Below are positions 20,233 to 24,000 of a stretch of DNA of 64,000 nucleotides, piece by piece. How positions within the stretch are numbered: the stretch's first letter is position 1; every line of letters begins with the position of its first letter. The notes under the pieces were generated by a model, which saw only the letters and a program-made list of their open reading frames with translations, ran no database searches and had not been told where the DNA came from. The stretch is from a virus (lineage: Duplodnaviria > Heunggongvirae > Uroviricota > Caudoviricetes), in the IMG/VR virus record IMGVR_UViG_2875713109_000001; one strand, written 5' to 3'. The translations under genes and the position numbers were made by a program.

Positions 20233-20359
20233 AACTATTTCCTTAATAGTGAATTAAATATCATTGGGAAACGGTATGTACTTTGTGATTTCCACACATA
20301 CTGGTTTTTGTTAATTAAAATCCGCAGCTTGCTATAAATAACGATAGTGAGCAGAAAAT

Positions 20360-20494
20360 ATGCTAATAGGCTATGTACGCGTATCAACAAATGAACAAAA
20401 CACTGCTTTACAACGAAACGCTCTTGAAAGCGCAGGATGTGAGCTAATTTTTGAGGACAAGGCGAGTGGAAAAAAGGCTGAACGACCAGAGTGA
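20360..20494 (+). pseudogene. cin: truncated Cin/Hin/Gin-family serine invertase (N-terminal 44 codons then stop)
   Basis: [44 protein letters not shown]-stop; catalytic Ser (VRVSTN) present but the rest of the recombinase is missing. Confidence 0.75.
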
Positions 20495-20667
20495 AAAAGG
20501 CTTTTGATAGGTAAACTCTGGTCGTATGAAAGTTAAATTTGCGTGGGTGCAGCATGCGCTCACTCTTGAGGCATGAACGGTAATCATCTGATAACTTGTA
20601 GCTCGATTATCCGGACGCACTGGAACCAGTCGATGCTTCCAGCGATCCAGATATTTCATTAAATGGA

Positions 20668-21078
20668 CTACGCCTCCGGGAACGCTGGCCAATTGACATC
20701 TGGTGCAGTGCTGGTATCCGTTGCGGTCACCGCATCGATATAATCCAGCACAGCGTTAAGACGGGTGGTTTCAGCCTGCGTAAGATTCCGCCCGGCCTGT
20801 AATTTCAGTTGAATAAGACTAATGGAAGCCATTGCGGTATCAATCAGCGACTGTTTTTTCTGTTCAGCGTCAGCTACCAGTTCATCATGAGAACGTTCCG
20901 GAGTGGGTGGCGCAGTAAATCCCCCGTCTGAATACACCCAGCCGATTCCGGGCTGCTCACTGATATCAGAAATATTAATGAGCTGCTGATTATCCGGCAC
21001 TGTGAATTCAGCCTCGCCATCCCAGACAATGACATTCACAACCATCCCATTTTCAATAACTGCATATGACGTATTCAT
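20668..21078 (-). CDS. U: tail fibre assembly chaperone (U/Tfa family)
   Basis: ATG at 21078 overlaps the S stop; sits just downstream of the fibre gene; track frame opens at 21102. Confidence 0.55.
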   Translation of the reverse strand: MNTSYAVIENGMVVNVIVWDGEAEFTVPDNQQLINISDISEQPGIGWVYSDGGFTAPPTPERSHDELVADAEQKKQSLIDTAMASISLIQLKLQAGRNLTQAETTRLNAVLDYIDAVTATDTSTAPDVNWPAFPEA

Positions 21079-24000
21079 TATGCAAACTCCTCGATAATAC
21101 AAATCCCTGAAGCGCCTTTCCCGCCCGTCATACTGGTTCCGCTATAACCGGCATCGTATGCGCCACCTCCGCCTGAACCATATGCTTTACCGATAACACC
21201 ACCGCCAGCGCCTGCACGTCCACCGCCGCCCCAGTACGATGTTCCGCCTTCACCGCTGACGCCGATATTTCCGGACTGACCGTCGCCTCCATGTCCACCA
21301 GTGATGCGGATATCGCCAGTACTCGGCACACCGCCGTTACCACCGTTTGTGTTTGTGACTCCTGACTTTCCGCCGCCTGAGCCACCAGGAGCAATTAACG
21401 ATGCGAATACGCTATTCCCGCCACTGGTGCCGTTCGTCGCACTAACACCACCGGCCCCACCTGCGCCGATAGTGACTGGATAACTATTCTGTGTCGGGGT
21501 CATTATTGAAATTATTGTCCCACCGGCCCCACCGCCAGCACCGAAAAACGTCTCGCTGCTCGAGTATGCCTTGCAGCCGCCCCCTCCGCCACCGCCGCCC
21601 GTTATTGTGACCCTGATCCGTTTTGTTCCTGGGGTTGGGGTATACGTACCTGATGAAGTGAAAACCTGGGTATTCACCAAACGCCCAACATATCCGCTTG
21701 AATCGCTCAGGCCAAGGTTAGCAGCAGTTAAAGTAATATTTGCAGAACCATCAAACTTAACACCGTTGATAGTGCGTGCAGTCTGTAGTTTCGTTGCGGT
21801 TGCGGCATTACCGGTAGTGCTCTGATTACCTGCTTTATTCACGCCCGGCAGGTCGATATTGGCACTACCATCGAATGACACTCCGCCTATTGTGCGTGCT
21901 GTTTGCAGTTTTGTTGCAGTTGCAGCATTGCCGGTAGTGCTCTGATTACCTGTTTTATTCACGCCCGGCAGGTCGATATTGGCACTACCATCAAATGACA
22001 CCCCGCCGATTGTGCGTACTGTTTGCAGTTTTGTTGCAGTTGCAGCATTACCGTTCAAACTACCATTGATGCCGCCAGTAACATTGAGTCCATTACCGAT
22101 CGTAACAGTACCATTGGCATTGTTAATGATAAGCGGCCTTAAATTATTATAGGTTCCCAGGCTGTTACCCGAATTGGTCAACATGAAATATGTGTTTGAA
22201 CCATCGTTTCGGATAAAGAATCCGTAGTTTCCGTAGGCAATGCGCAGACCATTCGCCGATTTTGAAATGATCTCACCAGTAGCCGTTAAACCGCCGTTGA
22301 GATTTCCTCCGGTTATTGGTAATGCGCCGACATCCGTGGCGGTCGGTTTAATGTGCGAACTGTAAATTACATATACAGTTCCATCTGTCAGGCCTGTTGG
22401 TTTATTCGCTGTATAAGATGGTGATGTATGAATCGTTACGCTGGCGTTACTGGTATAATCCCACTGAATATTAACACGTGTGGTGTAATTACCTATTTCA
22501 ACATAAACATCATAGGTATCACCGGATGTATTCACCCATGCAAAATTAGTAAATCCAACCGATGTCCGTCGCCATAACGCACCAGTAAGACCTTTTGGAT
22601 TCCCATTTCCCGCACGAAGAACAAGTTCAGATATACCAGCCTGCATAGGGGAGTTAACATTATATCCAGAACCACCAATCAGGCTTATGTAAACCACGGA
22701 ACTGGACTGTGGCATGGTTACAGTTGCCAGCTTGAACCATCCAGTACCACCACTAAAAGACATTGTTGTTGAGTTGATCGTGCCTATAGACCTTGGAGTT
22801 AGCTCAATGTTTTTAGAACCGTCAAACAACACCCCATTTATAGTTCTAGCGGTTTGTAACTTGGTCGCTGTCGCTGCATTACCGGATGTATTCTGATTAC
22901 CCGCAACGTTAACACCAGGTAAATTAATATTCGCAGTACCATCAAAGCTAACTCCGCCGATAGTTCTTGCCGTCTGTAGTTTTGTAGCAGTTGCTGCATT
23001 GCCAGTTGTATTCTGATTGCCAGTGGCATTCACACCAGGAATGGAGTCCCTTGATGTATATACCTGCGCCCACGCTGACCATGCCGCATCAGTGTGATCT
23101 CTTCGGGAGCGAATGAAAACCGGCGCATGTGCACCGCTCGTACCACTCCAGCCAATAAGCAACTCGCCCTCACCAGCAGCACTCGCACCTTTCATGTGCA
23201 ATACGTTGCCATACGCGGTCGGGTAGCTATTGTTGTACGCCTCATACATCTGCAATCCAGTAGAAGCACCTTGTGTTGTATCGGTGAGCGCAGTAACACG
23301 CCCTCTGGACGCAATTGTTGGTATCGAAATGTTCGCAGAACCATCAAACTTAACACCGTTGATTGTGCGTGCTGTTTGCAGTTTTGTTGCAGTTGCGGCA
23401 TTACCGGTAGTGCTCTGATTACCTGCTGTATTCACACCTGGCAGGTCGATATTGGCACTACCATCGAATGACACTCCGCCTATTGTGCGTGCTGTTTGCA
23501 GTTTTGTTGCAGTTGCAGCATTACCGGTAGTGCTCTGATTACCTGCTTTATTCACGCCCGGCAGGTCGATATTGGCACTACCATCGAACGACACTCCGCC
23601 GATTGTGCGTGCTGTTTGCAGTTTTGTGGCGGTGGATGCATTACCTGTCAAAGATCCACTAAGAGCCACGGCACTAAGAGACTTAACACTTACATCCTGA
23701 CCCCATCCGGAAACAACAACCTGACTCCACGCTGCCCAGCTTCCATTAACAACAAAGCGAACGTATATACGTTTTGTGTCGTTGCTGATCAGCGTTTGCA
23801 TGTTCGCATAATCCGAAGCAGAAACTTTGCGAGTCGACTCTACACGGAGCAAAAAGTTACCGTTTACGCCGTCAGGCTTGTTGGTGATATTTGCACCACC
23901 TCCAAAGGTTGGACAATAATAATATTTAATTGCCCCGACATCTGAGCTGATGGTCAGGTTGTTAAGATCAACCGTCTGGTCGCCAATTTTTTCCGGCTCG

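Follow-up and report, generated by a model that had tools for sequence, protein, structure and literature searches.

The tail-fibre locus studied here is very probably what a single deletion left of the fibre switch in a P1-like phage-plasmid, a scar without function. The window, i.e., the whole 64,000-nt stretch of DNA that was analysed, belongs, judged by gene order and nucleotide identity around the locus, to a P1-like IncY phage-plasmid (Punavirus). It shares 99.8% identity over 30 kb with the complete IncY plasmid NZ_AP027786.1, the darA/ddrB genes upstream of the locus are ordered as in P1, and positions 19500–20498, comprising lydB-lydA-lydC and the 5' end of the invertase gene cin, are 99% identical to P1. 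Homology to P1 runs through lydB-lydA-lydC into cin, ends at position 20564, and resumes at 24055 with the crossover site cixR and the constant part of the fibre gene, Sc.

The open part of cin (20360–20494, plus strand) consists of 44 codons followed by a TGA stop and includes the catalytic Ser10. Its product is 92% identical to residues 1–49 of P1 Cin and matches the Pfam Resolvase N-terminal domain (E=3e-11) at profile positions 2–51 of 145 only; about two thirds of the resolvase-type catalytic domain are missing or out of frame. The DNA from 20330 to 20466, corresponding to 30 nt upstream and cin nt 1–107, is 100% identical to P1. The original prediction that the first 44 codons remain and end in a stop is correct for this reading frame, but they are not all that is left of the gene, as cin DNA continues out of frame at 20495–20573 (plus strand; about codons 46–74 in the alignment to P1 cin). 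This homology ends at ~20564–20573, equivalent to P1 cin nt ~217–228 or codon ~74, and in tblastn searches of relatives the match likewise extends to Cin residue 74. Alignment of 20467–20573 to P1 gave 75 matches, 32 mismatches, and 13 gap columns, and the lesions comprise deletions of 12 nt and 1 nt plus a change from TGG to TGA. An invertase would be expected to have an ORF of ~185–195 aa. Since the frame is broken by the stop after codon 44, then by a frameshift and more stops, the remnant is a pseudogene and not a member gene of the Cin/Gin/Hin/Pin serine recombinases; PGAP/RefSeq labels it a partial or frameshifted recombinase pseudogene.

A tblastn search of the whole 64 kb with P1 Cin revealed no Cin-like coding sequence besides the remnant, and no match to residues 75–186, with the C-terminal helix-turn-helix DNA-binding domain, was found in the window or in NZ_AP027786.1. 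The search for an intact invertase elsewhere on the replicon thus had the predicted outcome: the complete relative has a single cix site and, apart from the remnant, nothing homologous to Cin. The recombinational enhancer (sis) at 20378–20449 (plus strand), now orphaned, does not differ from the element labelled 'enhancer of Cin-mediated C-segment inversion' in P1 (31678–31749, cin nt 19–90). As in P1/Mu-type invertible segments, it is embedded in the 5' region of the invertase gene, and judged by its sequence it is intact. The remnant is 86% identical between two groups of plasmids carrying the same junction, whereas the adjacent chaperone gene U is ~99% identical, a pattern that fits DNA evolving without constraint.

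Next to the stop lies a perfect 11-bp inverted repeat (20482–20492 and 20515–20525) with a loop of 22 nt, and the sequence AAGGCTTTTGATAGG, at 20497–20511 between the arms, differs from the 14-nt hix half-site by two mismatches. Both had been proposed as a possible crossover-site remnant; the sequences exist, but this interpretation was rejected. Within the window, there are two matches to the hix half-site at ≤2 mismatches against 0.65 expected, a number equalled in 16% of shuffles, and the second of them is the genuine cixR; 11-bp hairpin repeats are common in the window, with about 11 distinct loci. The 'half-site' and the repeat sit partly or wholly in the out-of-frame cin continuation, and their bases can be aligned position by position with codons ~41–60 of cin in P1, P7, D6, and SJ46; they are drifted cin coding sequence. 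Most junction carriers read ATGCTTTTGAGAGG at the 'half-site', with 4 mismatches out of 14. An IMG/VR search for an intact invertase allele with repeat arm 1 (GCTGAACGACCAGAGTT) found none, all six matches being the same shortened remnant.

One could hypothesise that the remnant has acquired a new role: its hairpin might terminate transcription between Pcin and the convergent late S-U operon or insulate one from the other, or the 44-aa peptide might have a function. The junction block is kept in many plasmids, the RNA of the minus strand of 20440–20680 folds better than shuffled sequences (z = -3.9), and a T6 run is located on the minus strand 6 nt past the stem. Moreover, the repeat, a quasi-palindrome already complementary at 10 of 11 positions in the intact D6 allele and the SJ46 cin copy, has become 11/11 here through one paired change. 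However, a terminator scan returned nothing at the hairpin, whose loop is 22 nt long, and the arm changes are the same in all carriers, which indicates one event without independent covariation. In addition, the remnant stretch diverges faster than its neighbours, and linkage to the fibre genes accounts for the retention of the block. Such a new role is therefore considered extremely improbable.

The gap between the 44-codon ORF and the U stop codon is 173 nt long and not empty, although, as predicted, it holds no alternative S'/U' segment. What it does hold is the relic of a convergent tail-fibre-assembly gene of the P2/Mu/e14 type (20591–20696, plus strand), comprising the last ~35 codons in decayed form with a TAG stop and a 5-nt insertion. 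This relic of ~106 nt shares 29 nt with the 3' end of U, an overlap like that of intact convergent pairs, and is 78–79% identical to the 3' end of intact convergent tfa genes (phage SKA5, a Mu-like prophage). The same relic occurs in the IncY plasmid pSBF45b (NZ_CP067234.1), downstream of that plasmid's own U'; it must therefore have come in with the cassette and, therefore, is itself no evidence for an in-place deletion.

Between the cin DNA and the relic lies the deletion joint (20574–20590), a few bases of unassignable origin. Comparison of the joint with the intact C segment of pSBF45b gave no significant match, 62 of 200 shuffles scoring equally well, and the possibility that its 17–28 nt represent the 3' end of a P1-type U' was rejected, the match being no better than shuffles. 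About 17–28 nt at the joint match nothing significantly, and the right-hand endpoint of the deletion can be placed only approximately. No cix-like sequence was found at the joint; in the absence of a hybrid cix there, a deletion made by Cin from cixL to some secondary site is unsupported.

The other side of the locus carries the fibre gene and its chaperone gene. U (20668–21081, minus strand), the single tail-fibre assembly chaperone gene, ends at 20668 as predicted (stop codon 20668–20670) and encodes an apparently intact protein of 137 aa, matching Pfam Caudo_TAP (PF02413) over residues 33–136 (E=3e-22; 79.7 bits, where the gathering score is 22.1). The gene and the 3' end of S overlap, the position directly downstream of the fibre gene being that of a Caudo_TAP chaperone; in phage Goslar, a 138-aa U homologue is found beside a gpS-like fibre gene. 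The single fibre gene S (21078–25505, minus strand) is one continuous ORF of 1475 aa from its MNDVTVV start, with a P1-like constant part followed by a foreign variable part and a glycine-rich tip, and with the Pfam domains Phage_fiber_2, Gp34_trimer, and Gly_rich_2. From 24055 onward it is 93% identical to P1 Sc, while the variable part Sv differs from that of P1 in being longer and having the glycine-rich tip.

At the Sc/Sv boundary within S, cixR (24129–24154, plus strand; TTCTCTTAAACCAAGGTATTGGATAA) matches P1 cixR at 26 of 26 positions and is the sole match to the cix/gix/hix consensus at ≤3 mismatches in the 64 kb. No second site of the cix/gix/hix type was detected at ≤3 mismatches in the window or at ≤4 in NZ_AP027786.1. 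A P1/Mu-type segment would be bounded by two inverted crossover sites, and here cixR stands alone. Large inverted repeats able to bound an invertible segment were not found between 20200 and 26000, where only chance-size pairs occur. Instead of two opposite cassettes of fibre tip and chaperone, there is one intact S-U set plus the ~106-nt relic, and no alternative S'/U' set is present in the window. The decayed cin, the single cix site, and the lack of a large inverted repeat support the original prediction of a lost switch with one fixed S-U set; inversion would be impossible because there is one crossover site and no invertase.

DNA invertases of the Cin/Gin/Hin/Pin family complement one another in trans. 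The switch could therefore still work if Pin, Gin, or Cin supplied by the host or a co-resident element acted on cixR and a cryptic half-site partner: cixR and the enhancer are intact as sequence, and AAGGCTTTTGATAG is one of just two window matches within 2 mismatches of the hix half-site. However, a second full 26-bp site is missing, with one match at ≤3 mismatches in the window and one at ≤4 in the complete relative, so that a trans-acting Pin-type invertase from the host chromosome would still be without a partner site. In the left half of the candidate site, only 3 of 12 positions match (counted directly from the sequence); its 'half-site' bases are homologous to cin codons, and, in the absence of an alternative Sv'/U', there is nothing to invert onto. 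A working switch is accordingly hardly credible. Another scenario is that cixR and the enhancer serve as a landing pad, where recombination between cixR and the crossover site of a different element, carried out by Pin, Gin, or Cin from a co-resident prophage, would capture a new fibre cassette; this, or a hairpin insulator, has sequence retention in its favour but appears very unlikely. A simpler ground for the persistence of cixR is that it is coding sequence of S.

A comparison with pSBF45b suggests how the switch was lost. In this IncY P1-like plasmid, the switch is intact, with the order cin-cixL-Sv'-U'-relic-U-Sv-cixR and a full 186-aa cin product. Its U and glycine-rich tip are 87% identical to those of the window, the flanking backbone is 93–95% identical, and cixR matches. 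Where pSBF45b has 2,531 nt (positions 3363–5893), the window has 49 nt (20565–20613) and is thus 2,482 nt shorter on balance. With its identity of 87–95%, pSBF45b can stand as a model for the ancestor but is not that ancestor itself. Up to cin nt ~217, P1 (NC_005856) and the window agree in backbone and layout, and their enhancer and cixR are identical; P1, however, also possesses cixL, a full Cin of 186 aa, and a 4.2-kb invertible segment with two cassettes (Sv'U' and USv), all of which the window lacks.

The ancestor would have been laid out as P1, with cin, cixL, Sv', and U', then the convergent U and Sv, and then cixR and Sc. One of its cassettes would have been a horizontally acquired U with a glycine-rich fibre tip, which brought along the short relic of its earlier convergent chaperone gene. 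Illegitimate recombination may then have deleted ~2.5 kb net, comprising cin codons ~75–186, i.e., most of the catalytic domain and the entire DNA-binding domain, together with cixL, Sv', and U'. Left over would be an enzyme fragment incapable of DNA binding or cleavage, the orphaned enhancer, and a lone cixR, the latter surviving because it is coding sequence of S. The element would express only Sc-Sv(glycine-rich) and U from the late operon, and we infer that its host range narrowed through the loss of the switch. After the deletion, the remnant probably drifted, gaining further small deletions and stops, and the block may have spread among P1-like and D6-like backbones. This order of events is also inferred.

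Alternatively, the locus could result from cassette replacement and not from a deletion in place, with a donor prophage carrying a degraded segment having provided the relic, U, and the tip and broken cin in the process; the functional outcome would be the same. Blocks of relic, U, and glycine-rich tip occur in Mu-like and P2-like chromosomal prophages, where the U/glycine-rich cassette is 86–91% identical to that of the window on other phage backbones. In these prophages, convergent chaperone genes overlap by 29 nt, and in some of the block-bearing ones the invertase or the convergent chaperone gene has decayed. E. coli strain 3CM still has both cassettes. The left boundary of the relic is nearly equal in the window and pSBF45b, showing that the block moves as a unit, and the identity profile across the region is mosaic. 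However, pSBF45b has the block inside an otherwise complete P1-type C segment, so that one deletion is enough; both remnants are oriented exactly as the P1 layout predicts, and the distal cin remnant resembles cin and not the donor. Replacement is therefore unlikely, and a deletion within the switch is the preferred explanation.

The same breakpoint sequence was found in 44 PLSDB plasmids, 73 of 5,426 complete E. coli genomes, and 6 IMG/VR contigs, and was also seen on a D6-like backbone. Its occurrence in 73 independent complete assemblies led us to reject an assembly artefact or a collapsed inversion. A dead cin remnant with a lost switch is an ordinary feature, already known, published, and annotated as a pseudogene. 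Venturini et al. 2019 (PMC6906374) reported a 'partial invertase orf' in pSvP1 and other P1-like plasmids and inferred the loss of Cin-mediated switching. Plasmid pSvP1 (MN510446) has the cin-remnant/relic/U junction of the window (100% coverage of 20440–20760, 88% identity) and shares its glycine-rich fibre tip, but differs by IS-mediated rearrangements and virulence-plasmid insertions. Its junction also has an indel of 18 nt in the relic, which was observed in CP099080, another plasmid of the 88%-identity group.

The remnant itself is mostly a matter of bookkeeping and raises no new question, while plasmids with this junction make up a sizeable sublineage among the P1-like phage-plasmids of E. 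coli, in which a single receptor-binding fibre is fixed; they include plasmids from clinical, animal, and food isolates. The one-fibre state bears on the prediction of host range and transduction potential, and the locus adds to the evidence of repeated cin-locus decay in P1-like elements, namely SJ46, pTZ20_1P, and pSvP1. SJ46 likewise retains no more of cin than a 5' fragment, with an annotated length of 74 aa, but its breakpoint differs, and its cin loss is an independent event. A second, intact invertase gene of the pin/min type adjoins the SJ46 remnant in the opposite orientation, and the switch in SJ46 may still be working.

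The sequence at window positions 19500–20498 is 99% identical to phage P1 through lydB, lydA, lydC and the beginning of the invertase gene cin, and over its first 30 kb the window shares 99.8% identity with the complete IncY plasmid NZ_AP027786.1. Taken together, these similarities assign the locus to a P1-like phage-plasmid, at the place occupied in P1 by cin and the invertible tail-fibre segment (C segment). Three differences from NZ_AP027786.1, the closest complete relative, were noted: an ISVsa5 copy interrupting a gene and an IS91-family element near the plasmid origin coordinate are both absent from the window (window ~45170–45183 and ~50353–50700 were compared), and a stretch of ~1.1 kb (57922–59019) close to tRNA genes also differs.

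The open part of the cin remnant (20360–20494, plus strand) comprises 44 codons plus TGA; it matches residues 1–49 of P1 Cin, and its product corresponds to the Pfam Resolvase domain in its N-terminal part (profile match, E=3e-11). The original prediction ended the remnant at this stop codon; the reading frame, its coordinates and the stop were right, but cin-derived DNA runs further. Alignment with cin of P1, P7, D6 and SJ46 extends it to about 20564–20573 (cin nucleotides ~217–228, codon ~74), the lesions past the stop being two deletions (12 nt and 1 nt) and a TGG>TGA change, and in relatives carrying the same remnant Cin residue 74 is reached in a second frame (tblastn). Positions 20330–20466 are identical to P1, including the annotated recombinational enhancer (20378–20449, cin nucleotides 19–90); relative to P1, positions 20467–20573 have 75 matches, 32 mismatches and 13 gap columns. 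RefSeq annotates the remnant as 'recombinase family protein; incomplete; missing C-terminus' and that of the sister group as 'frameshifted; internal stop'.

A 'half-site', AAGGCTTTTGATAGG (20497–20511), lies within a perfect 11-bp inverted repeat (20482–20492 / 20515–20525), and the two had been proposed as a possible crossover-site remnant. Re-reading of the sequence reproduced the ORF, U, the repeat and the position of the 'half-site', but the crossover-site interpretation was rejected, both elements being drifted cin coding sequence. An alignment places their bases, column by column, on cin codons ~41–60, from ERPGL to DTLVV, and the two arms are complementary at 10/11 positions in the intact D6 allele and the SJ46 cin copy, at 8/11 in P1 and at 11/11 in the remnant. 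In most junction-sharing plasmids the 'half-site' reads ATGCTTTTGAGAGG, with 4/14 mismatches to the hix half-site versus 2/14 in the window; a match with two mismatches is not significant (2 hits versus 0.65 expected, equalled by 16% of shuffles), and the window has about 11 loci with perfect 11-bp hairpin repeats. A terminator role of the hairpin was also discarded, given the 22-nt loop, a terminator scan that was blank there, and no independent covariation being found. In this quasi-palindrome (20482–20525), a C>A change abolishes the mismatch seen in D6 and SJ46, a paired G>A / C>T change in the arms preserves pairing, and the loop has an 11–12-nt deletion. This pattern resembles templated quasi-palindrome correction and, being common to all remnants, reflects one event.

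A search for the cix/gix/hix consensus with up to three mismatches revealed one site in the 64 kb, TTCTCTTAAACCAAGGTATTGGATAA (24129–24154), which is identical to the P1 crossover site cixR and sits at the boundary between the constant (Sc) and variable (Sv) parts of the tail-fibre gene S. The other crossover site, cixL, located at the 3' end of cin in P1, is missing from the window, where P1 Cin as a query gave no further match and no large inverted repeats bounding the region were found. In the complete NZ_AP027786.1, the Cin query finds the remnant alone, with no second homologue, cixR is not accompanied by a second cix site even at four mismatches, and the annotations list no further serine recombinase. 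Therefore, this replicon has no invertase, no second site and no alternative cassette, and an invertase acting in trans, if present, would still have no substrate. The site searches exclude a switch still working via a cryptic site, and the occurrence of the same junction in many independent assemblies excludes an assembly artefact. The proposed loss of the switch, the main point of the original prediction and made from sequence alone, was upheld; correction was required for the extent of the remnant, for a second relic and for where the repeat came from.

This second relic lies in the 173-nt gap between the remnant and U, the tail-fibre assembly chaperone gene, where the original prediction saw no room for an alternative S'/U' segment. 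Positions 20591–20696 (plus strand) match, with 78–79% identity, the last ~100 nt of a convergent tail-fibre-assembly gene found in Mu-like phage SKA5 and also in a Mu-like prophage of E. coli strain 3CM. The translation reads NL*LDYPDALEPVDASSDPD versus NLWLDYLDTLELVDTSGAPD in the intact gene, with a 5-nt insertion after it, and the 29-nt overlap with the 3' end of U is the same as in intact convergent pairs. The relic is also found in pSBF45b (NZ_CP067234.1), a P1-like IncY plasmid whose cin is full-length (186 aa); its presence there rules out a leftover of the deleted U' and means that it arrived with the U/tip cassette.

In pSBF45b, cixL is followed by the P1-type alternative cassette (Sv' and U'), the convergent-chaperone relic, U with a glycine-rich tip (87% identical to that of the window), and then cixR and Sc. 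Window positions 20565–20613 (49 nt) stand in place of pSBF45b 3363–5893 (2,531 nt), leaving the window 2,482 nt shorter on balance; gone are cin codons ~75–186, cixL, Sv' and U'. The 17–28 nt at the joint gave no significant match and contain no cix-like sequence, and the deletion has the look of an illegitimate event, not of one mediated by Cin. A single deletion from a pSBF45b-like layout accounts for the locus most simply; replacement of the cassette through recombination with a donor whose segment was already degraded is improbable, and would leave the functional outcome unchanged. The U/tip cassette is in circulation among Mu-like and P2-like prophages too. It was seen in such prophages in the chromosomes of E. 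coli 3CM (L010 4088–6399) and E. coli 67-1 (L011 4827–5361), where its neighbour is a decayed invertase in one case and a convergent chaperone gene, likewise decayed, in the other; because both have decayed partners, losing the switch in the surroundings of this cassette is a recurrent event outside P1-like elements.

The remaining fibre set consists of U (20668–21081, minus strand), a 137-aa Caudo_TAP chaperone with the Pfam domain covering residues 33–136, and S, which is one uninterrupted ORF on the minus strand of 1475 aa from the MNDVTVV start, with a glycine-rich domain at the end (ORF and Pfam). In every relative, plasmid or chromosomal, RefSeq tags U as 'incomplete; missing N-terminus'; jumbo phage Goslar has a 138-aa homologue beside a gpS-like fibre gene. 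U is probably an intact short-form chaperone miscalled as a pseudogene. Inside S there are two 120-nt tandem arrays of 2.4 copies each (21768–22053 and 23361–23645), also forming direct repeats of each other (92.6% identity over 325 nt). The length of S in relatives varies from 4,425 to 4,665 nt, and it is annotated as broken in some; recombination between these repeats probably drives the variation in fibre-shaft length.

The breakpoint joining the cin remnant, the chaperone relic and U was found in 44 PLSDB plasmids, all from E. coli and non-mobilizable, with identity over the breakpoint of at least 99% in 12 and 84–88% in 32. It is also present in 73 of 5,426 complete E. coli genomes, with plasmids carrying 70 of the 73 copies, in six IMG/VR contigs and on a D6-like backbone. 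Among its carriers is the P1-like plasmid pSvP1 (MN510446, accession confirmed), in which Venturini et al. 2019 (PMC6906374) described a 'partial invertase orf'; they reported such elements to be without a complete C segment, with host-range switching presumed lost. The locus is an ordinary pseudogene scar, widespread and previously described. Compared with three plasmids in which the junction is more divergent, the window has 86% identity in the distal cin remnant and ~99% in U, a contrast that fits DNA under no constraint, linked to a gene that is conserved or was recently exchanged. For 464 PLSDB plasmids there was a megablast match to P1 cin plus cixL, with coverage of at least 80% in only 219; short coverage may represent truncated copies or diverged alleles. 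SJ46 (L024 2361–3298) carries an independent 74-aa cin remnant with a breakpoint unlike that of the window, directly adjoining an oppositely oriented pin/min-type invertase gene.
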